Source: Candidatus Omnitrophota bacterium (GTDB taxonomy: Bacteria; Omnitrophota; Omnitrophia; Omnitrophales; Aquincolibacteriaceae). Taken from it: DNA of 64,000 nucleotides. The translations under genes and the position numbers were made by a program. The number at the start of each line of letters is the position of its first letter. Within the stretch, counting starts at the first letter, position 1. The stretch lies in NCBI GenBank assembly GCA_903856085.1, contig CAIOAT010000013.1:231430-295429 (forward strand), given 5' to 3'. The notes beneath the pieces were generated by a model. That model ran no database searches and was not told where the DNA came from. It worked only from the letters and a program-made list of their open reading frames with translations. This document shows positions 2,314 through 16,621 of this stretch, one piece after another.

Positions 2314-2515
2314 AAAACAATCCCGAAAGACGGCCCACAGTGAAATACGCCCGAGGTCTGGTTCTTTGTTGTGCTATCTTGATTTGATCGGGATTCCAGA
2401 GTACCATCCTCTTCTTAGATTTTTTAAGAGAATGGCAGGGCTGGCCCTAATTTCTGCATTGCTGAAATTGATAGACCTTGGGACCCTAGGTGCGTCGAAA
2501 AGGAGACGGACATCA

Positions 2516-3397
2516 ATGACACAGGTTTTGTGGGACGCCTTGAAAGACACGTTTGGAATGATACCGTGGCTTTTGGGGATCTATATAGCGCTTGAGATTC
2601 TTGAGAACAAGTCGGAATCTTTTATCGGAGAAAAGATCAGTCACCGGATGGGCGCGGCGCCTCTTTTGGGTGCGCTTCTGGGCTGCATGCCCCAATGTGG
2701 TTTTTCGGTCATAGCGGCCACGCTTTATGCCCGCAGATGCATTTCAAGGGGAACACTTCTGGCCGTTTTCCTATCAACCTCGGACGAAGCGATCCCTGTC
2801 ATCCTCGCCCAGCACGACAAAGCCCCGCTCGTCCTTTGGCTACTGCTCGTGAAAGTGATCCTTGCGACGGTCGCCGGATATGCGATCGATCTTATTTTTA
2901 AAAAGGACGCTTCTAAAATATTGCATTCTCCGCACGGCCCCGTGGTTCCCGAGGGAGGGCACAGACACTGCGACTGCCATGCTCATGGCCGAGAAATCCC
3001 AAAATGGAAAACCTTTTTTCTTTTCCCTTTGAAACACACGATGAGAGTTTTATTTTTTATTTTTGCAGTTTCGCTTACGATCGCCTTCCTGGTCGCAAAA
3101 TTTGGGGAAAAGGGCTTAGGGCACATCTTTTTCGCAGGGACCTTTTTCCAGCCCATGATCGCGGTCTTGGTGGGACTGATCCCGAACTGCGCCGCTTCCG
3201 TCGCCATCACCGAGATCTACCTCAAAGGCGGCATCACTTTCGGTTCCGCCATTGCAGGTCTTTCGGCCAGTGGCGGCCTGGGACTGTTGGTTCTCCTAAA
3301 AGAGAATAAAAATCGTAAAGAAAACGCTCTCATCATCAGCCTCCTTATTTTCGTTAGCCTCCTCGCGGGGATTGTTATTAATATTCTAATGCGCTAA
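2516..3397 (+). CDS. Polytopic membrane permease, ArsP_2/PF11449-like putative 10-TM metal exporter family
   Basis: Multiple TM segments. Two internally repeated halves carry Cys-containing motifs (GCMPQCGFSV ... TSDEAIP and IPNCAASVAITEIY). Start chosen at MTQVLWDAL. The ORF track N-extension from 2366 is unlikely to be translated. The stop is 8 nt before mgtA. Confidence 0.45.
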   Translation: MTQVLWDALKDTFGMIPWLLGIYIALEILENKSESFIGEKISHRMGAAPLLGALLGCMPQCGFSVIAATLYARRCISRGTLLAVFLSTSDEAIPVILAQHDKAPLVLWLLLVKVILATVAGYAIDLIFKKDASKILHSPHGPVVPEGGHRHCDCHAHGREIPKWKTFFLFPLKHTMRVLFFIFAVSLTIAFLVAKFGEKGLGHIFFAGTFFQPMIAVLVGLIPNCAASVAITEIYLKGGITFGSAIAGLSASGGLGLLVLLKENKNRKENALIISLLIFVSLLAGIVINILMR

Positions 3398-3405
3398 ACT
3401 TTCCT

Positions 3406-5961
3406 ATGCCAAATTCTCAAAACCTTAAAAATCAAAAACCGATCTCCTTTTTTAGTGCGGCAACGGCCGAAGATCTCCTCAAAGAATTTATGACCTCGTG
3501 GGGGGGCTTGTCCGAAGAAGAAGCCTCTTTGCGCATCGAAAGACACGGCCCCAACGAGCCGGCAAGAAAGAAAAAAAGGGCCGTGCTGGGACAACTCCTC
3601 CAGAAATTCACGGATCCGCTCGTCATTGTCCTTGTGATCATCGCCACCTTTTCTCTCTGTTTCGGAGAAAAGATCCAGGCACTGCTCGTCCTGCTCATGA
3701 TCTTCCTCAGCGTCTTTTTGTCCTTTTTCCAGGAGTATCGTTCCCACAAAGAAGCCGAAAAGCTAAGTGAACTCGTACGCGCCACGGCCACGGTCAACCG
3801 TGACGGGAAACAGATCGAAATCAAAATGCGCGAGATCGTCCCGGGCGACATCGTGGATCTTTACGCGGGCGACATGATCCCCGCGGACCTCCGCATTCTT
3901 TCCTGCAAAGATCTTTTCATCAACCAGTCGTCCTTGACCGGAGAATCTTTCCCCATTGAAAAAACTGCAGCGCCGGTCAAAACCGAAAGCCTTTCCGTTA
4001 CAAATCTGACGAACATCGCATTCATGGGATCAAGCGTTGTCAGCGGGACCGCATTGGGTCTTGTTATCCGGACTGGCATTGAAACTCAATTCGGAGAGGT
4101 TTCCCGCCGGCTGGCCAGCATCCGCACGCAGACCAGCTTCGACAAAGGCATCCATCAGTTCGTTTGGCTCATGATTAAAGTGATGATGGTGATGGTCGCC
4201 GCGATCTTTGTGATCAATTTGGTCACCAAAGGCGATTGGAAGAACGCTTTGCTTTTTTCACTTGCGGTCGCCGTCGGCCTGACGCCAGAAATGCTGCCGA
4301 TGCTCGTGACGATCAATCTTTCCAAAGGCGCCATCGCCATGTCCAAAAAGAAGGTCATCGTGAAGCGCCTCAACTCGATCCAGAACCTCGGCGCCATGAA
4401 CGTGATCTGTACGGACAAGACGGGTACCCTCACGCTGGACGATGTCGTGCTCGAACGCCATTGCGATGTGGTCCGAGCAGAGAACGAAGAAGTCCTCAAA
4501 TATGCCTTCATCAATAGTTTCTATCAAACCGGTCTCAAAAACCTGCTTGATCGCGCGATTTTGAAGCACGAATTGGTGCTGGCCCAACAATATAAGAAAG
4601 AGGACGAGATCCCGTTCGATTTCTCGCGCAGGATCATGTCGGTGATCGTCGAATCCGAAGGAAAACAGACGCTTATTTCCAAGGGGGCACCCGAGGAGAT
4701 CTTCAAACGTTGTCGCTATTACGAACTCGACGGCGAGATTCTGGAGATGGAAAACCTGATCCTATCGGATCTTAAAGAAGAGTATGACAGCCTAAGCGCC
4801 GACGGTTTCCGGGTCCTGGCCGTGGCTTATAAAAATATGTCGGAGAGAAAAAGCGTTTACAGCAAGGACGATGAAAAGGACCTCGTCTTGATCGGCTACC
4901 TCGCATTCCTCGACCCGCCGAAACCCAGCGCCAAGGAGACGATCCATCGCCTGAAAAATCTTGGCATCGAATTTAAAGTGCTGACAGGCGACAACGAACT
5001 TGTGACCAAAAAGATCTGCAGCCATGTCGGGCTTGATGTTCACGAGATCGTTACAGGCGACAAATTGGAGGCCACGAGCGATATCGCGCTCCGGGAACTC
5101 GTCAAAAAAACCACGGTCTTCGCGCGTCTCTCACCCCTTCAAAAGGAACGCGTCATTCATGCGCTTCACGAGAACGGACAGATCGTCGGGTATCTTGGAG
5201 ACGGCATTAATGACGCCCCCGCCCTCAAGACTTCAGATGTCGGCATTTCTGTCAATAACGCCGTCGATATCGCCAAGGAATCTGCGGACATCATCCTGCT
5301 TGAAAAAAGTCTTTTGGTCCTGGAAGACGGCGTCTTGGAGGGCCGCAGAACCTTCGGGAACATTATGAAATACATCAAGATGGGTTCGAGTTCTAATTTC
5401 GGGAATATGATCAGCATGACCGGGGCGAGCCTTTTCCTTCCCTTTCTCCCGATGCTTCCGATCCAGATCCTGTTCAACAATTTCCTTTATGATGTTTCTC
5501 AGGTCGCCATTCCCACAGACAATGTGGACGTCGATTATTTGAAAACTCCCAAAGGATGGGACATCAAAGCCATTCGAAGGTTCATGCTCATCTTTGGCCC
5601 TATCAGCTCCCTCTTTGATTTTTTAACCTTTGGACTCCTGCTTTTTGTTTTCCACGCTTCTCAGGAATTTTTCCATACCAGCTGGTTCCTGGAATCGCTG
5701 TGCACTCAAACTTTCATTATTTATATCATCCGGACCGCCAAAATACCCTTTATCGAAAGCCGCCCGAGCCGCTTCCTGGTCCTGATGTCAGTTTTCATCA
5801 TCGGGACCGCCTTCGCCATCACTCTTTCCCCGTGGGGGAAATTCTTCGGTTTTGTGCCTCCGACCTGGAGCTACGGCTTTGCGGTCTTCATGATCGTCCT
5901 CGCCTATCTCGCCCTCACGCAAAAAATCAAAGCTTGGTACGTAAAAAAGTTCGGCTACTAA
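3406..5961 (+). CDS. mgtA: Magnesium-translocating P-type ATPase
   Basis: 851 aa. P-type ATPase phosphorylation motif CTDKTGTLT, hinge GDGINDAPAL, and an MgtA-type N-terminus and TM layout. Confidence 0.85.
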   Translation: MPNSQNLKNQKPISFFSAATAEDLLKEFMTSWGGLSEEEASLRIERHGPNEPARKKKRAVLGQLLQKFTDPLVIVLVIIATFSLCFGEKIQALLVLLMIFLSVFLSFFQEYRSHKEAEKLSELVRATATVNRDGKQIEIKMREIVPGDIVDLYAGDMIPADLRILSCKDLFINQSSLTGESFPIEKTAAPVKTESLSVTNLTNIAFMGSSVVSGTALGLVIRTGIETQFGEVSRRLASIRTQTSFDKGIHQFVWLMIKVMMVMVAAIFVINLVTKGDWKNALLFSLAVAVGLTPEMLPMLVTINLSKGAIAMSKKKVIVKRLNSIQNLGAMNVICTDKTGTLTLDDVVLERHCDVVRAENEEVLKYAFINSFYQTGLKNLLDRAILKHELVLAQQYKKEDEIPFDFSRRIMSVIVESEGKQTLISKGAPEEIFKRCRYYELDGEILEMENLILSDLKEEYDSLSADGFRVLAVAYKNMSERKSVYSKDDEKDLVLIGYLAFLDPPKPSAKETIHRLKNLGIEFKVLTGDNELVTKKICSHVGLDVHEIVTGDKLEATSDIALRELVKKTTVFARLSPLQKERVIHALHENGQIVGYLGDGINDAPALKTSDVGISVNNAVDIAKESADIILLEKSLLVLEDGVLEGRRTFGNIMKYIKMGSSSNFGNMISMTGASLFLPFLPMLPIQILFNNFLYDVSQVAIPTDNVDVDYLKTPKGWDIKAIRRFMLIFGPISSLFDFLTFGLLLFVFHASQEFFHTSWFLESLCTQTFIIYIIRTAKIPFIESRPSRFLVLMSVFIIGTAFAITLSPWGKFFGFVPPTWSYGFAVFMIVLAYLALTQKIKAWYVKKFGY

Positions 5962-6096
5962 ACACGCGCCGCTTGGAAAACGTTGCGCGTTTTTGCGATC
6001 CGCTTTCCTTTCACCCCGCCACACGTTTTAATCCCTTCCCCGCTCATTCCATTTAAGCTACAATCCTCCTCATCACTCACCTTCCCGGAGGCTTTT

Positions 6097-6369
6097 ATGG
6101 ATTGGAAAGTTTTTTTGGCCACATTAAGTGCTATTTTTTTTGCGGAGCTTGCGGACAAAACCCAGTTTGTGGGAATCACCATGGCTTCCAAAACTGGGAA
6201 ACCCTTTTCCGTATTTCTGGGTTCGATCGCAGGCTATGCGCTGGTGACACTGATCTCGGTGGTCATCGGAACCCTCTTGGCGAAATACATCAAGCCTGAG
6301 ATCATTCGCTACACTGGTGCGACGGCATTCGTGATCATCGGAATGTTGATGTTCTTTAATAAATTGTAA
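6097..6369 (+). CDS. UPF0016 (GDT1/TMEM165/MneA) family putative Mn2+/Ca2+ transporter, single half-size repeat
   Basis: About 90 aa with three TM segments and the family signature E-L-A-D-K-T (ELADKTQFV). Start at MDWKVF. The ORF-track extension from 5983 is non-hydrophobic leader. Confidence 0.6.
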   Translation: MDWKVFLATLSAIFFAELADKTQFVGITMASKTGKPFSVFLGSIAGYALVTLISVVIGTLLAKYIKPEIIRYTGATAFVIIGMLMFFNKL

Positions 6370-6551
6370 TGTCCGAAAGGACGTCATCCCCGAAGGGCTT
6401 AATCGGGGAGACATAAAACCAAGCTAGATTCCCGAGCTGAACGACCTATAAAGCTTCATAGGGAGTTGAGTGCGGCATTCGCTTTTAATGAAATCTTTAA
6501 TGAAAGCAAGCGCCGCTTTGACGGGAATGACAAAATAAAAAGGAGTACTCC

Positions 6552-6629
6552 ATGGCAAAAAAAGCGAAGAAAGTAGCAAAAAAGAAGACCAAGAAAGCCG
6601 CAAAAAAATCCAGTTGCTGCTGCCGTTAA
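6552..6629 (+). CDS. Candidate small ORF: a 25-aa polybasic peptide ending in CCCR (MAKKAKKVAKKKTKKAAKKSSCCCR)
   Basis: A strong SD, AAAGGAG, sits 6 nt upstream of the ATG. It is below the ORF-track length cutoff. A perfect 15-bp hairpin follows it. Confidence 0.3.
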   Translation: MAKKAKKVAKKKTKKAAKKSSCCCR

Positions 6630-6637
6630 CACATTCG

Positions 6638-6675
6638 CAAGCTACGAGGTTGAAAGGATCCAACCTCGTAGCTTG
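6638..6675 (+). promoter_or_regulatory. Perfect 15-bp inverted repeat (CAAGCTACGAGGTTG / CAACCTCGTAGCTTG, 8-nt loop) between the small ORF and the rluA-like gene
   Basis: Read directly from the sequence. No U-tract follows, so it is not a canonical intrinsic terminator. It could be an attenuator, a processing site or a protein-binding site. Confidence 0.5.
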
Positions 6676-6696
6676 AAATGGTTCTTGCTCAATTCA

Positions 6697-7431
6697 ATGA
6701 CAAACGCCCCTTACACGCAGTGCCCGATCCTCTTCGAAGACACGGACCTTCTTGTGATCAACAAGCCCGAAGGGGTTCTCTCCCATCCTAATCCCGGGAC
6801 TAAAAGTCCTGCTTCCGCTTTCGAAGGTCCTTATGATCTGGCTGAACGACGATTTCAAACGCCTCAAGGACCGATCTGGCTCATCCATCGCCTGGATCAA
6901 GACACCTCCGGAGTACTTCTGGCCGCAAAAAACAAGAAGAGTGTCGCGGCCTGTAGGAACGCTTTCGAGAACAGGCAAGTGAAGAAAAACTACATCGCCC
7001 TTGTTTCAAGACGGCCGATGCCACCCCACGGAATATGGCGCGACACGCTCATGGAAAACCGGTCCTCCGGCGGCATCCGTTCTGCCATCAATTATGCGGG
7101 AAAACCTAATGCTTTTTTAAATTACAAAATGAAAGAATATTTCCAGAAATTCAATCTGTCGCTTTTGGAGATCGAACTCTTGACCGGAAAAACGCATCAG
7201 ATCCGCGTGCAGTCGACCTATCGCGGCCACCCCGTCGCTGGTGACAGGATCTACGGAAATTTTACTCTCAATAAAGAGTTGCGGGCAGCTCTTGATCTGC
7301 ACAGGATGTTCCTACACGCCTGGCGGTTGGTCCTTCCACATCCCACGAGCGGAAAACTGCTCACCCTCGAATCCCCGCTCCCGGAAGACCTGGAAGATTG
7401 TCTGCTCAGAGTCTCTCCGCCGAAGCGATGA
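6697..7431 (+). CDS. RluA-family pseudouridine synthase
   Basis: HRLDQDTSGVLL catalytic-Asp motif and a TGKTHQIRVQ motif. Start taken at the ATG (MTNAPYTQ). The ORF track begins at an upstream TTG inside the hairpin. The stop overlaps the next gene by ATGA. Confidence 0.7.
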   Translation: MTNAPYTQCPILFEDTDLLVINKPEGVLSHPNPGTKSPASAFEGPYDLAERRFQTPQGPIWLIHRLDQDTSGVLLAAKNKKSVAACRNAFENRQVKKNYIALVSRRPMPPHGIWRDTLMENRSSGGIRSAINYAGKPNAFLNYKMKEYFQKFNLSLLEIELLTGKTHQIRVQSTYRGHPVAGDRIYGNFTLNKELRAALDLHRMFLHAWRLVLPHPTSGKLLTLESPLPEDLEDCLLRVSPPKR

Positions 7432-9065
7432 AGGTCCTGCTTTTACAACCTCCCGTGCAGGATTTCTACAATACCGATATTCGCCTCCAGCCGATCGGCC
7501 TGGCGTATCTGAAAGCCGCCGCCAGAAAATTTCTCCCCGAGGTGAGCGTCACGATCAAGGACTATCATCACGGCTGGGGCCGGCGAACGATCCCTCTCCC
7601 GCGAGAGCTCACCTATCTAAAAGATTATTATTCCAAAGACGACAAAAGTCCGTTTTCAACATTTCATCATTATTATCATTTTGGCGCAGATTTTGACATG
7701 ATCGCTGAAGAGGTCGCGAAAGAAAAACCCGACCTCGTTGGCATCGCCTCTCTTTTCGCGCCATATCACCGCGAGGTTCTGCACTGCGCCGAGGCGATTA
7801 AAAAACGCTTTCCTGTTCCCATCCTGCTCGGAGGCTCTCAGGTATCCGCGATGCCAGAAGCGATGCTCGTACATCCCGCGATCGATTTTGTGATCCAAGG
7901 CGAGGGCGAGCGGCCGTTTGTAGAACTTTTAAAGATTTTGAAAAGCGGCAAGAATTTCAAGAAAGTTTCCAATTTGGGGTATAAGAAAAATGGGCGGGTA
8001 GTCTTCAACCCCCGGAAAGGGAATTTCCCGATCGGAACACTTCCTTTCCCTGATCTTTCCGACCTTCCTCAAGGTCATTATCTTTTCGAAAAAAAACCTC
8101 TGTGCTTTATCATCACTTCCCGTGGCTGTCCTTACCGCTGCACCTTTTGCTCGGTCCATAAGACATTCGGCTATCAATGTCGGCGCCGTTCCGCAGAAAA
8201 CATTCTTTCTGAGATCAAGCAGCGTTACCAAGAGGGCTATCGCGTCTTTGACTTTGAGGATGATAACCTTACGTTTGATCGGAAAGAAATGACGGACCTT
8301 TGCGGAAAACTCATTCGGACGTTCCCCCCAAAAGACATCCAACTCCTCGCCATGAACGGGGTCTGCTACTGGACGCTGGATAGCACTATCCTCAAGCTCA
8401 TGCGCCGAGCGGGATTTACGCATCTGAATCTTTCTCTCGTCAGCACGAACACATCATTGCTCAAAACCGTCCACCGGCCCAACCCGCTTAGAAAATACCG
8501 CGACGTCGTAGAGAAAGCGGTAGCCATCGGCTTTAAGGTCGTCGCATATCAAATCCTCGGGCTTCCGGGTGACACGCTCCCTTCAATGATCAAGACACTT
8601 CTCTTTAACGCCAAACTCCCGGTGCTTTTGGGAGCTTCTCCTTTTTATCTTATTCCCCACTCGCCGATCGCCCGACATTTCGATGAACCCTCTGAAACAG
8701 ATGTCTTCAGGGCGCGCCTCACGGCTATGGCCATTGAAACCAAAAACTTCCAGCGCGGAGATCTTTACACACTCCTCATCACGACCCGAATCCTGAACTT
8801 TTTGAAAGGAATCCCTACGAGAACCTCAAAAACTACCCTTTCCAGGGCCCTGGAGATCGCCGAAAAACAGGGTCCTCGCTTAACTGTTGGCGTGGAAATC
8901 TTGCAAAGACTGTTGAAAGAAAAGAAGTTTTACGCCTCGACTGCGAAAGGCCTTGAACCGCTCCCCCGCTTCAAATCCGAACTATTCTTCCAATTGTGGC
9001 AAAAACTTGATAACATCAAAACCCAGGCAAATAAAACTATTGAACTTGGGGGAGACCGTCGATGA
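7428..9065 (+). CDS. B12-binding-domain radical SAM enzyme (class B rSAM), substrate unknown
   Basis: An N-terminal cobalamin-binding-like domain (MKVLLLQPP...) is followed by the radical-SAM CPYRCTFCS (CxxxCxxC) cluster. It has ATGA overlaps with both the upstream and the downstream gene. Confidence 0.7.
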   Translation: MKVLLLQPPVQDFYNTDIRLQPIGLAYLKAAARKFLPEVSVTIKDYHHGWGRRTIPLPRELTYLKDYYSKDDKSPFSTFHHYYHFGADFDMIAEEVAKEKPDLVGIASLFAPYHREVLHCAEAIKKRFPVPILLGGSQVSAMPEAMLVHPAIDFVIQGEGERPFVELLKILKSGKNFKKVSNLGYKKNGRVVFNPRKGNFPIGTLPFPDLSDLPQGHYLFEKKPLCFIITSRGCPYRCTFCSVHKTFGYQCRRRSAENILSEIKQRYQEGYRVFDFEDDNLTFDRKEMTDLCGKLIRTFPPKDIQLLAMNGVCYWTLDSTILKLMRRAGFTHLNLSLVSTNTSLLKTVHRPNPLRKYRDVVEKAVAIGFKVVAYQILGLPGDTLPSMIKTLLFNAKLPVLLGASPFYLIPHSPIARHFDEPSETDVFRARLTAMAIETKNFQRGDLYTLLITTRILNFLKGIPTRTSKTTLSRALEIAEKQGPRLTVGVEILQRLLKEKKFYASTAKGLEPLPRFKSELFFQLWQKLDNIKTQANKTIELGGDRR

Positions 9066-9541
9066 AATTAAAAAATTTTCTCAAATTTATTTTTGCGTTT
9101 ATCCTTTGTCAGGGTGCCGGCGCCGCAGGCTCGGTCTACACGCTGCCCGCCATCCCGGGTTGGTACAAGTCTCTCCAAAAACCATTCTTCTCGCCTCCTG
9201 ACTGGGTGTTTGGGCCTGTCTGGACCCTTCTTTTTACGCTGATGGCAGTTGCAGTCTGCCTTGTATGGGCCAAAGGCCTCAAAGAAGCGGACGTCCGAAA
9301 AGCACTTATCGTCTTTCTTGTACAGCTGGCTCTGAACAGCTTCTGGTGTTTTCTTTTCTTCGGCCTCCGGTCTCCGCTTTACGGCCTCATTGAGATTTTT
9401 GTTCTCTGGTTCATGATTTTGATTACAATACTCCAATTTCTCAAGGTTTCACGGTGGGCCGCAGGGCTGCTGGTTCCTTATCTTTTATGGGTAAGTTTTG
9501 CAAGCAGCCTCAATTTTGGAATATTTCTTTTAAACAGATAG
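9062..9541 (+). CDS. tspO: TspO/MBR family (tryptophan-rich sensory protein)
   Basis: GWYKSLQKPFFSPPDWVFGPVWTLLFTLMAV signature and five TM helices. Confidence 0.75.
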   Translation: MKLKNFLKFIFAFILCQGAGAAGSVYTLPAIPGWYKSLQKPFFSPPDWVFGPVWTLLFTLMAVAVCLVWAKGLKEADVRKALIVFLVQLALNSFWCFLFFGLRSPLYGLIEIFVLWFMILITILQFLKVSRWAAGLLVPYLLWVSFASSLNFGIFLLNR

Positions 9542-9622
9542 AAACATCGGGAAACGGGCAATGTGGGATGCAAAGAAATTCCGTTCCCCTTCATCCCTTT
9601 TCCAAGGAAACGGTTTAAAATC

Positions 9623-10252
9623 ATGGACTGGCTTCACGAATTTTTCTCGAAACTTTATCATTTCGAAGAACTGATCCGCTGGGGCGGGTATGTCGTCCTG
9701 GTGATTATTATCTACGCAGAAACAGGACTCCTCGCCGGATTCTTTTTGCCGGGCGATTCTCTGCTTGTCACGGCCGGGCTTTTCGCGGCGGTGGAAGGCG
9801 CGCTCCGTATCGAGGTCCTCATTCCCCTTCTCGCGGTGGCAGCTATCGCAGGCGATAACACCGGCTACTGGCTTGGCTACCATTTCGGCCCGAAGCTTTT
9901 CAGCAGGACCGATTCTTTTTTCTTTCACAAGGATCATCTGACCCGAACGCAAAAGTTTTATGACCAATACGGCCCCAAAACGCTCATTTTGGCACGCTTT
10001 GTTCCGATCGTCCGAACCTTTGCGCCAACGGTCGCCGGCGTTGGCCGTATGCCTTACCGAAAATTTCTTGCCTATAGCCTTGTCGGCGGCCTCGGCTGGA
10101 TCTCGAGCATGACACTTCTTGGATTTTCTCTCGGCCACTCGATCCCCAATATCGAAAAAAAAGTCCACTGGGTCATCCTGGCCGTGATCTTCCTCTCATT
10201 CCTTCCGATCCTGAAGGAATGGCTGCATTCGAGGAAAAAGCCTAGTGTATGA
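9623..10252 (+). CDS. DedA/VTT-domain (SNARE-associated) family membrane protein
   Basis: AETGLLAGFFLPGDSLLVTAG and ARFVPIVRTFAPTVAG motifs. Start at MDWLHEF. Confidence 0.7.
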   Translation: MDWLHEFFSKLYHFEELIRWGGYVVLVIIIYAETGLLAGFFLPGDSLLVTAGLFAAVEGALRIEVLIPLLAVAAIAGDNTGYWLGYHFGPKLFSRTDSFFFHKDHLTRTQKFYDQYGPKTLILARFVPIVRTFAPTVAGVGRMPYRKFLAYSLVGGLGWISSMTLLGFSLGHSIPNIEKKVHWVILAVIFLSFLPILKEWLHSRKKPSV

Positions 10253-10325
10253 GAGCGGTCCCAATACCCATCCATCGAAGCGTAGTGAGATCGGGACCGT
10301 CCAAGTTGCCGTTTTGGAGAAGAAA

Positions 10326-10662
10326 ATGAAAGTCTGGACGGTCGCACTTTTGGTGGTTTCCAATATTTTCATGACCGCGGCATGGTACGGCCATCTAAAA
10401 TTCAGGTCTTCCGCCCTCTGGAAAGTCATTGTCATCAGGCTGGTTGATCGCTTTTGTGGAATATTGTTTCCAGGTTCCCGCGAACAGGATCGGGTCTTAC
10501 CAGTTTTCGACCGCGCAGCTTAAAACGATCCAGGAAGTGATCACGCTTGTAGTCTTTTGCGGTTTTTCTGTTCTTTATCTCAAAGAAGAATTAAAATGGA
10601 ACTATCTGGTGGGTTTTGGTTTCATGGCCGTTGCCGTATTTTTTGTTTTTAAAAAGTGGTAA
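10326..10662 (+). pseudogene. DUF486 (DMT-superfamily) small membrane protein, split by a +1 frameshift near 10425-10435
   Basis: Two overlapping ORFs in different frames. 10245..10523 contains MKVWTVALLVVSNIFMTAAWYGHLKF. 10429..10662 contains SGWLIAFVEYCFQVPANRIGSYQFSTAQLKT. Together they reconstruct a ~111-aa DUF486 protein. This is either an authentic frameshift or an assembly indel. Confidence 0.5.
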
Positions 10663-10711
10663 CTTCCTGATTTAAAGACAATGAAAAATCAGGATAACCT
10701 GAAAGGTCGTT

Positions 10712-11458
10712 ATGGCTCTTAAAGAAACTTATGAAAAGCAGGGCGCATTCCTTTTCCGCGGCAGAAGCTATCTTCCCCTTTTGGTGGGACCTCTTGTCGT
10801 GGGCGCGCTCCTGGATCCCCAATACACCCATCCCTTGTTCAGCGGTTTTTCCGGTAGCCTCTGGAAAACGATTTGCGTACTTATTTCCTTTACGGGGCTT
10901 TTGATCCGCTGCCTTGTAGCCGGTTATGTACCTCTTGGCACATCGGGACGCAATACCGAGAGACAGGTCGCTGAAAGTTTAAACACAAAAGGTCTTTATT
11001 CCATGGTCCGGAATCCTCTTTATCTCGGGAATTTCCTCATCATCCTGGGGCTTCTCCTCTTCATCCAGGTCTGGTGGTTCACGCTTGCCGGGATCGCTAT
11101 TTTCTGGATCTTCTATGAACGTATTATTTTCACGGAAGAAGAATTCTTGCGTCAGAAATTCGGCACCACGTTCGTGGAATGGTCTTTAAAAACACCCGTC
11201 TTCATCCCTAAGTTCTCGGGCTGGCAAAAACCGGAACTTCCCTACGCGTGGAAAATCGTTCTTCGCCGTGAGCATTCGACCCAGTTCGGCATGGTTTCCA
11301 CACTTGCCGTACTCGGAATCGCCGCTGACCTTTTCACGAAACCTGACCACAAGATCGCCGCCTTTTGGTGGATCTTCTGGGGAACGTCACTCGTCATTTA
11401 TCTTGTTCTCCGTTTTTTAAAGAAAAAAACAAACGTCCTCAACATTCAGGGCCGTTAA
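10712..11458 (+). CDS. Isoprenylcysteine carboxyl methyltransferase (ICMT)/phospholipid methyltransferase-family membrane methyltransferase
   Basis: VRNPLYLGN and EEEFLRQKFG motifs characteristic of the ICMT/PEMT fold. Multi-TM. Confidence 0.6.
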   Translation: MALKETYEKQGAFLFRGRSYLPLLVGPLVVGALLDPQYTHPLFSGFSGSLWKTICVLISFTGLLIRCLVAGYVPLGTSGRNTERQVAESLNTKGLYSMVRNPLYLGNFLIILGLLLFIQVWWFTLAGIAIFWIFYERIIFTEEEFLRQKFGTTFVEWSLKTPVFIPKFSGWQKPELPYAWKIVLRREHSTQFGMVSTLAVLGIAADLFTKPDHKIAAFWWIFWGTSLVIYLVLRFLKKKTNVLNIQGR

Positions 11459-11477
11459 ACTACTTTTGAGGTGACCT

Positions 11478-12044
11478 ATGAAAAAATCGCTCGGCGCAAA
11501 AACCATGCTTTTCCCCACTCCCGTCCTGATCGTCTGTTCTTATGACGCCAAAGGTGTTCCTAATGCCATGAACGTCGCTTGGGGCGGTATCGCCTGCTCA
11601 GAACCGCCGTGCGTAGCCATCTCAATCCGCGACCATCGAAAAACCTATGAGAACATTATGGCAAACAAGGCCTTTACCGTGAATATCCCTTCCGAGAAAT
11701 ACATGAAAGAAGCGGATCATTTCGGGATCGTGTCGGGAAAAACCGAGGACAAATTCAAGGCCACAGGACTGACACCCGTCAAAAGCACTTTGGTCAACGC
11801 CCCTTACATCAAGGAGTTCCCCCTCGTATTGGAATGCTCCCTCAAAGAAACACACAGACTCGGCACCCATACGCAGTTCATCGGTGAGATCAAGGATGTG
11901 AAGGCTGAAGAATCTTCCCTCAATGCAAAGGGATTTCCGGATGCCGAAAAAATGAAAGCTTTCATGTTCGATCCGAGCACGAGCGCCTATTACGCAACCG
12001 GTAAGTTCCTCGCCCAGGCCTTCACGGTCGGCAAGAACAAGTAA
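11478..12044 (+). CDS. Flavin reductase-like (flavoredoxin) domain protein
   Basis: N-terminus PTPVLIVCSYDAKGVPNAMNVAWGG is typical of flavin reductase-like FMN-binding proteins. Confidence 0.65.
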   Translation: MKKSLGAKTMLFPTPVLIVCSYDAKGVPNAMNVAWGGIACSEPPCVAISIRDHRKTYENIMANKAFTVNIPSEKYMKEADHFGIVSGKTEDKFKATGLTPVKSTLVNAPYIKEFPLVLECSLKETHRLGTHTQFIGEIKDVKAEESSLNAKGFPDAEKMKAFMFDPSTSAYYATGKFLAQAFTVGKNK

Positions 12045-16559: not shown

Positions 16560-16621
16560 GGGGAAAAAGTAAGGGGGTCAGGCACCTTCAAAAAACGAGA
16601 CGGTGCCTGACCCCCTAAATC

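Follow-up and report, generated by a model that had tools for sequence, protein, structure and literature searches.

The region described here lies in a 64-kb stretch of DNA from Candidatus Omnitrophota (hereafter the window, whose coordinates are used for all positions), and its central element is a gene of 25 codons plus stop (6552..6629, + strand), whose product, MAKKAKKVAKKKTKKAAKKSSCCCR, contains 11 Lys, 1 Arg and no acidic residue and carries a CCC tail. We refer to this gene and its product as the microgene and the microprotein. The ATG is preceded by a Shine-Dalgarno sequence, AAAGGAG (6539..6545, +), of which the AAGGAG portion (6540-6545) stands 6 nucleotides (nt) from the start codon, and the stop codon is followed after 8 nt by a perfect 15-bp hairpin with an 8-nt loop (6638..6675, +; arms 6638-6652 and 6661-6675). 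The neighbouring gene on the 5' side encodes a GDT1/UPF0016 cation transporter (6097..6369, +; Pfam PF01169, 74.7 bits), called as a 90-amino-acid (aa) gene in public assemblies. On the 3' side lies a gene for an RluA-family pseudouridine synthase (6697..7431, +), whose true start is the ATG at 6697, the form that public assemblies also carry. Fold prediction places two short stem-loops just 3' of the GDT1 stop (6371-6382 and 6383-6412, +), the second of which includes TCCCCGA/TCGGGGA (6387-6393 / 6403-6409). The initial annotation had reported the open reading frame (ORF), its ribosome site, the 15/15 inverted repeat without a U-tract, the TCCCCGA...TCGGGGA hairpin and the flanking genes, and each of them was found again in its place. 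The microgene is missing from every public annotation examined, the gene calls for the identical contig being empty between GDT1 and rluA; genes of fewer than 30 codons are skipped by standard gene callers.

Relatives of the locus were collected by a scan of a genome collection with RluA alignment, which returned 80 loci (designated here by L numbers). The ORF is found in all 30 loci that share the gene cluster (L001-L030), over a range of RluA identity from 89% down to 51%, and in none of L031-L081. Conservation of the reading frame in orthologous leaders had been set beforehand as the test of this ORF, and it was passed decisively: the ATG, an AGGAG-type ribosome site and the in-frame stop are present in 30/30 genome loci, and the length varies between 24 and 31 codons by whole codons only. 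Pairwise nucleotide differences at codon positions 1, 2 and 3 number 1840, 990 and 4448, respectively (61% at position 3), with plentiful AAA/AAG and GCN wobble changes across the loci and 3007 synonymous against 2306 non-synonymous codon differences. A pattern scan of metagenome contigs, blind to the neighbouring genes, recovered 21 extra Omnitrophota-type copies, all of them in the same cluster and all retaining ATG, frame and stop. When the window is shuffled, 0.00 matches are expected to a degenerate DNA pattern that describes the peptide. Because the frame is kept and synonymous changes are in excess in the orthologous loci, the ORF is very probably a real protein-coding gene that has been selected as a protein. 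Judged from the same comparisons, it is conserved across a deep clade of Candidatus Omnitrophota; all RluA homologues that bear names belong to this group. Few features of the locus are as clearly constrained as the microgene, whose product has been established by comparative genomics alone, in an uncultivated phylum of ultra-small bacteria.

The consensus of the microprotein reads M-A-K-K-x-K-K-x-x-K-K-K-x-K-K-x-x-K-K-S-x-C(G)CCC-x, that is, an N-terminal MAKK followed by a polylysine/alanine segment, in which the non-Lys residues are spaced about 3.5 positions apart, and by a C-terminal cluster of two to four cysteines (tails include CCCR, CCCC, CGCCCS, CGCCCG and CCR). The ORF has 11-14 Lys codons and 3-4 Cys codons. 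Neither Pfam nor NCBIfam gave a match to the microprotein, and the best hit of a PDB profile search, eL27 at E = 0.21, was judged to reflect composition only. In the literature we found no description of a relevant polylysine/cysteine small protein or of an Omnitrophota small protein. Selection against long A-runs in the ORF was looked for: the mean maximum run is 6.8, against 7.9 in codon shuffles, a shift the way such selection would push it, but with P > 0.05 in 28/30 loci the trend was not used as evidence. We considered, and rejected, a programmed frameshift at A_AAA_AAG into rluA stimulated by the hairpin, since the phase of the ORF relative to rluA is not constant (0, 1 or 2) and the stretch that separates them is not open in the rluA frame in 7/14 loci.

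The hairpin that follows the microgene is the only perfect stem of at least 11 bp in the 64 kb and forms the second most stable 45-nt window there. It has counterparts in most relatives: the 60 nt past the microgene stop have a median folding energy of -28.2 kcal/mol (30 loci), compared with -9.9 kcal/mol for 182 other gene ends of the same loci, and values of -20 kcal/mol or lower occur in 22/30 microgene 3' ends and in 5% of the control ends (Mann-Whitney p = 6e-10). The stems vary in sequence, and in the 14 hairpins that can be aligned 97% of cells pair, with compensatory changes at 11/15 pairs; this level of covariation was reached by 0/500 shuffles, and shifted registers did not come close either. 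Across the loci the stem begins 3-12 nt past the stop. These comparisons indicate that the 15-bp hairpin is the microgene's own selected RNA structure. A strong hairpin is missing in 8/30 loci, and five of these (L014, L017, L020, L022 and L024) have about 4-25 nt or less between the stop and the start of the following ORF.

In the window no U-tract follows the stem (AAATGGTTCT stands there) and a terminator scan was empty; a canonical U-tract is present after the stem in relatives L002, L019 and L026-L028, and also in the unrelated-lineage copies L108 and L143. Since rluA starts only 21 nt beyond the stem, with neither an evident ribosome site nor room for a promoter, the stem cannot terminate transcription completely. 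We infer that it is a partial terminator and/or a 3'-end stabiliser that raises the yield of the microgene cistron over that of the downstream genes. It would end or stabilise a short, abundant transcript, while part of the transcription would read into the next genes. Rho-independent terminators and intercistronic stabiliser hairpins serve as the comparison here. The hairpin shares with them a GC-containing stem-loop near the stop, compensatory changes and, in some relatives, a U-tract, but differs from Rho-independent terminators in having no U-tract in the window, the next gene at 21 nt and a stem far stronger than those of other gene ends. Elsewhere in the window, the most stable 45-nt segment of the 64 kb (16571-16615, -32.8 kcal/mol) is a hairpin of the form GGGGGTCAGGCACC...GGTGCCTGACCCCC. 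A near-identical stem, GGGGTCAGACACC, is the U-tract terminator of the microgene in L002 and L185, and stems of this type may be a recurrent terminator or an element like the repetitive extragenic palindromes in these genomes.

On its 5' side the microgene is separated from GDT1 by 182 nt in the window. The initial annotation described a leader of 300 bp, which has to be revised: of 25 relatives, 12 have a spacer of 17-30 nt and another 3 have one of 38-44 nt, which puts the ORF 17-44 nt from GDT1 in 15/25. Extra hairpins, of unrelated sequence, are confined to the lineage of the window, where the spacer has 182 nt, to L005 with 198 nt and to a small number of other relatives with 71-102 nt. 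The stem-loops at 6371-6412 are common only to the close relatives L008-L010. Further downstream, a 5' untranslated stem, ATTCCCG/CGGGAAT, surrounds an insertion of about 85 nt (6428..6528, +; predicted three-way junction). The insertion itself (6435-6521) sits in the loop of this hairpin, which L008-L010 retain in its plain form, and it has no match in Rfam and no second copy in the window. On this comparative evidence, the 182-nt spacer is made up of hairpins whose insertion is particular to the lineage.

Folding of 6370-6700 as a whole gives z = -5.2. Rfam returned nothing relevant at E<=10 for 5800-7300, only sub-threshold miRNA-like noise for the hairpin and, at the gathering threshold, only 2 tRNAs in the whole window; a known structured RNA family, which the initial annotation had raised as the competing account, is thus found neither at the locus nor across the window. 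A conserved riboswitch in the spacer was rejected on the grounds that the spacer is short in 15/25 relatives and that the extra hairpins are lineage-specific and not repeated in the window. In L007, L011, L012 and L029 the spacer is filled by a different hairpin family, of GCGCAACG/CGTTGCGC-like repeats, and the GDT1-microgene spacer seems to be a hotspot of hairpin insertion. As for transcription signals, a candidate -10 element, TAGATT (6425..6430, +), lies within AAGCTAGATT, and loci without GDT1 have AGCTAGAAT or AGCTACAAT in place of this TAGATT-bearing sequence. The common AGCTAGAWT motif may be a -10 element; a scan with the sigma-70 consensus did not find a full promoter in the region.

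The microgene belongs to a cluster of genes that run in one direction and encode transporters of cations and metal(loid)s. Neighbours were counted over 51 loci (30 genome and 21 metagenome), some of which sample the same populations. GDT1 is the immediate upstream gene in 44/51 loci, the others having an ArsP_2 gene (3), a PII-like gene (2) or a gene for an MgtE_N-CBS protein (2) in this position, and in 32/51 loci the fetched upstream flank contains an ArsP_2 gene. Upstream of GDT1, the window encodes an MgtA-type Mg2+ P-type ATPase, whose 1016 bits exceed the cut-off of its family, and a permease of the ArsP_2 "arsenic efflux" family. The cluster therefore reads, in order, ArsP_2-type exporter, then MgtA, MgtE_N-CBS protein or PII-like protein, then GDT1 and the microgene. 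The slot between ArsP_2 and GDT1 varies: it holds the MgtA-type Mg2+ ATPase gene in the window (3406-5961) and elsewhere a gene for a PRC-barrel/MgtE_N/CBS cytosolic protein or a PII-like protein, the equivalent variable slot being noted in L008, L009, L021-L023 and L026, which suggests a swappable cation-sensing or transport module. The immediate downstream gene is rluA in 28/51 loci; in 22/51 it is a 49-aa ORF, which we call CysORF2, followed by an ArsP_1 permease gene, a pair that the window itself lacks. On the 3' side of rluA in the window are genes for a B12-binding radical-SAM protein, TspO, a DedA/VTT protein and a PEMT/ICMT-fold methyltransferase (10712-11458, from family models).

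CysORF2 encodes about 49 aa of the form ...KKGFFAKLFEKIDKKLEEKAKKSGCCC...SCCG, in which an amphipathic helix, KKGFFAKLFEKIDKKLEEKAKK, precedes CC(C)...CC(G). It is located at about 1890-2055 in L003-L026 (e.g. L011:1888-2049), at L100:60-180 and in L201-L210, and its last codons overlap the ArsP_1 ATG (TCATGCTGC) in 5/5 junctions read. The ArsP_1 permease belongs to PF03773, and its closest NCBIfam models are SaoE and the SO_0444 Cu/Zn efflux family. A CysORF2 profile recovered 423 database proteins, all annotated as "hypothetical", the named ones all from Omnitrophota. In distant genomes the CysORF2-ArsP_1 pair adjoins genes for ArsR/SmtB-type HTH_5 regulators, Thioredoxin_3, DsbD_2 and outer-membrane efflux (OEP) proteins, a neighbourhood that marks it as a probable metal(loid)-efflux module. 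L100, which belongs to a different lineage (GC 0.43), keeps the trio in a changed order, with a CysORF2-like gene first, ArsP_1 second and a polyK-CGCCCC microgene last. The translated exporters contain Cys motifs of their own, CSC in ArsP_1 and CIPQC in ArsP_2. Two unnamed families of Cys-tailed small proteins are defined in this way, the polyK-polyC peptide and the 49-aa CysORF2 with its more than 400 database members, and both are tied to the poorly understood ArsP_1, ArsP_2 and GDT1 transporters.

The combination of clustered cysteines, a very small protein and adjoining metal(loid) transporter genes suggests, tentatively, that the microprotein is an accessory peptide for thiolate-based metal(loid) handling, and this is the reading that we favour. 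The tail of three or four cysteines would bind thiophilic metal(loid)s, for example As(III), Cu(I), Zn, Cd or Hg, and the Lys/Ala segment, with a charge of +12, would attach the peptide to some polyanionic surface, for which the anionic inner leaflet of the membrane beside the exporters is the most plausible candidate. The peptide could then buffer the substrate or pass it to the Cys-motif exporters, as a minimal metallochaperone of the ArsD/CopZ type. If it does bind metal at the membrane, it would provide a minimal metallochaperone model and a natural template for metal-binding polycationic peptides. A bolder version, in which the 25-residue peptide is a complete metallochaperone and forms with CysORF2 a two-peptide thiolate relay feeding ArsP-type exporters with Cys motifs, is possible but doubtful on the present comparisons; if true, the peptide would be the smallest genetically encoded component of metal trafficking known, from a family invisible to current annotation.

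The folded metal-binding proteins ArsD, CopZ, SmtA/BmtA and MymT are domains of 50-120 aa with CxxC, CC...C or CxC patterns. What the microprotein would have in common with them is the proposed binding of soft metal(loid)s by clustered cysteines, with buffering or delivery to an exporter encoded nearby; it differs from them as a 25-residue, probably unfolded polycation with a single Cys cluster, and homology to them was tested for and not found. The Pfam, NCBIfam and PDB searches likewise place it in none of the DUF466, SaoC, ArsD, HMA or metallothionein families. Closer in design are small proteins with a C-terminal Cys-Cys encoded beside transporters, for which contacts with heavy metals have been argued in a preprint: YbdD/YjiX, a DUF466 protein ending in ...RCC-COOH and adjoining CstA-type transporters, and SaoC, which ends in CC-COOH and stands beside the ArsP-family SaoE (bioRxiv 10.1101/2022.07.06.499078). 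The likeness lies in the short protein, the vicinal C-terminal cysteines and the transporter-adjacent gene, one of the transporters being an ArsP-family protein with a CSC motif. Unlike them, the microprotein shows no sequence similarity to YbdD/YjiX or SaoC, is much shorter at 25 aa, has 3-4 contiguous cysteines and an extreme polylysine body and, whereas SaoC has a signal peptide, is predicted to be cytoplasmic and without one. The microprotein is best described, from its sequence and gene context, as a putative member of the transporter-associated Cys-tail small proteins.

Several observations weigh against metal(loid) handling. The synteny that suggests this putative function may partly reflect shared ancestry inside one clade. 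GDT1, the most constant neighbour, is of a family whose known substrates are Mn2+/Ca2+, and thiolates are poor ligands for such hard cations. The polylysine microgene is absent from the four distant CysORF2-ArsP_1 contexts that were examined, and a strict requirement for it by CysORF2-ArsP_1 was rejected on that account. Micro-ORFs of the polyK-polyC kind are present in other lineages too, where their surroundings are unrelated: among them, one type adjoins an [FeFe]-hydrogenase gene, one comes directly after a TrpRS/TyrRS-class gene on low-GC contigs and one lies on a high-GC contig. An alignment by hhalign of the microprotein tail KAAKKSSCCCR with DKAKKSGCCCA in the centre of CysORF2 reached 56% probability over 11 columns, which are short and of low complexity, and possible homology between the two proteins is suggestive only. 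Finally, with rluA, the gene for an enzyme that modifies rRNA or tRNA, directly downstream in 28/51 loci, an RNA-binding role fits equally well.

Such a role is the main rival to metal(loid) handling. The microprotein would be a polycationic binder of RNA, DNA or the ribosome, in the manner of very small ribosomal proteins or of basic chromatin tails, whose Lys/Ala segment neutralises its partner, possibly sparing Mg2+, and whose cysteines link one peptide to another via metal bridges. The composition would suit this function (48% Lys/Arg with an AKKA-type repeat), the microgene is upstream of and co-transcribed with the RluA-family gene in the 28 loci just mentioned, genes concerned with Mg2+ (MgtA and the MgtE_N-CBS protein) belong to the same cluster, and expression is probably high, to judge from the strength of the ribosome site and from the stabilising hairpin. 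The similar micro-ORFs of other lineages, found without nearby transporters, point in the same direction. Tight linkage to transporters and the reshuffled trio of L100, however, are unexpected for a general component of the nucleoid or ribosome, it is not evident what the contiguous conserved Cys cluster would do in an RNA binder, and no significant similarity to solved ribosomal or chromatin proteins was detected, the eL27 match being the best in the PDB. Protamines pair basic runs with cross-linking cysteines, and the microprotein resembles the Cys-containing protamines, as well as histone H1 and the AKKA tails of chlamydial Hc1/Hc2, as a Lys/Ala-rich polycation; it is nevertheless far shorter than any of these, has no detectable homology to them and is tightly tied to transporter genes. 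We consider nucleic-acid or ribosome binding rather unlikely; if it were true, the microprotein would be a protamine-like factor in bacteria.

That the ORF is instead a cis-acting leader or attenuator was also proposed in the initial annotation; a ribosome on the Lys/Cys codons would then control the hairpin and hence rluA, the radical-SAM gene and tspO. We now regard this as very unlikely. It would account for the place of a short ORF, with its run of 3-4 Cys codons, right in front of a strong hairpin, and for an rluA gene that begins 21 nt past this hairpin without its own signals, and there is a precedent in the polycysteine leader ORFs of mycobacteria, which are described in a preprint as leaderless sORFs (small ORFs) upstream of cysteine-metabolism operons that act as cysteine-responsive attenuators rather than as functional peptides (bioRxiv 10.1101/834739). 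The resemblance consists of a very short ORF, consecutive Cys codons and other genes downstream on the same transcript, and it is superficial: the microgene has a strong ribosome site, the body of its peptide is conserved, an antiterminator is lacking, and the genes that follow vary between loci and have nothing to do with Cys or Lys supply. No sequence able to pair with the 5' arm of the stem was found, and the ORF region is unstructured in both the minimum free energy and the centroid folds. The hairpin is situated 3-12 nt past the stop, so that a terminating ribosome need not melt the stem, and it is missing altogether from 8/30 loci. Directly downstream stands either rluA (28 loci) or CysORF2-ArsP_1 (22 loci), and none of these genes serves a Cys or Lys pathway. 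Unlike typical leader peptides, moreover, the part of the microprotein that precedes the cysteines is conserved, both in its N-terminus and in its Lys spacing.

The next alternative dispenses with the protein: the conserved element would be an A-rich RNA with a hairpin, for example a small RNA carrying ARN repeats, or else a gene encoded by the other strand. Motifs of the (ARN)n type are compatible with AAA/AAG triplets and small RNAs typically end in a hairpin, and the antisense frame whose wobble positions coincide with those of the ORF is open in 29/30 loci, where it would give a hydrophobic FFAAFLVFFFA. Against this stand the ATG, ribosome site, in-frame stop and Cys codons retained by every locus, the restriction of insertions and deletions to whole codons, the lack of an Rfam match for the region and the fact that a start codon upstream of the hydrophobic stretch occurs in only 1/30 loci in this antisense frame. 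We give a non-coding or antisense element only a slim chance. The antisense frame is open because of the Lys/Ala/Cys codon composition of the sense strand. A gene on the opposite strand was rejected for the remaining antisense frames as well, these being interrupted by stops in 5 and 9 loci. The open antisense frame (6552-6629, minus strand), with its apparent hydrophobic helix, is a composition artefact that could mislead predictors of small ORFs.

Two further proposals of the initial annotation have fared worst. In the first, the microprotein would be the precursor of a ribosomally synthesized and post-translationally modified peptide (RiPP), its cysteines being modified by the neighbouring B12-dependent radical-SAM enzyme. 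The small Cys-rich peptide is indeed encoded about 0.8 kb upstream of the B12 radical-SAM gene in the window, and among the many weak and partial matches of the enzyme are some to RiPP methyltransferase models. The enzyme nonetheless falls below every NCBIfam cut-off, its best partial matches being to the P-methyltransferase, BchE and HpnJ types, and shows only B12-binding and Radical_SAM domains; the microgene and the radical-SAM gene are parted by the hairpin and by one to three genes (rluA, with or without CysORF2-ArsP_1). The ORF persists in L014, L019, L028 and L029, where no radical-SAM gene is present within the fetched flank, no gene for a protease, exporter or recognition domain was seen, and the peptide has no leader/core architecture; a RiPP is thus a most improbable reading.

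The second proposal, equally improbable, is that the polybasic-Cys tail is prenylated or S-acylated and carboxyl-methylated by an ICMT-like enzyme as a Ras-like anchor, which would fit a formal resemblance to eukaryotic polybasic/Cys anchors and the PEMT/ICMT-fold methyltransferase gene 4 kb downstream, but fails on the lack of a CaaX box in any of about 50 orthologues, on the score of the methyltransferase on the isoprenylcysteine model NF040696 (42 bits, cut-off 160), compared with 223 bits on the LmtA model, and on the lack of a prenyltransferase among the nine ORFs (2366-12044) that were assigned to families. GTPases of the K-Ras4B type carry a polybasic region and a CaaX anchor with ICMT methylation. 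The microprotein shares with them the Lys run directly before C-terminal cysteines, and to this extent the suggested polybasic-plus-Cys resemblance stands as a formal analogy; it has no CaaX box, is a free peptide rather than the tail of a folded protein, is bacterial, and neighbours a methyltransferase that is LmtA-like. The 223-bit match of the 10712-11458 product (below the 325 cut-off) extends over the full length of the model for LmtA, the Leptospira lipid A Kdo2 1-phosphate O-methyltransferase. In relatives, the LmtA-like gene travels with the DedA/VTT and flavin reductase genes. Together with the evidence on attenuation, this makes the handling of metals through cysteines a better fit than a lipid anchor, an attenuator or a substrate of the radical-SAM enzyme.

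The polyK-polyC ORFs of other lineages (e.g. MAKKKKVVKKKATKKKTTQKKSGCCCCC and MAKKVVKKTVKKAKKKCGCCCDC) are located at L108:1907-2005(-), L143:2050-2136(-), L121:3709-3780, L184:14008-14079, L110:4480-4584, L131:2139-2225, L157:4881-4958 and L176:506-583, and in L188 and L189. Some of them have classic terminators, and they may represent either a wider class or a case of convergence. The pattern scan also returned longer Lys/Cys-rich ORFs, at L106:2832-3260 (MAKKCCENCCKEGPCAPDKKCCENCCC..., 142 aa) and on the minus strand of L159 at about 269-500 (MAKKKEKKDNKKKRDPKKKTCCCGKTDCACMK..., 78 aa), which, from their sequences, look metallothionein-like.

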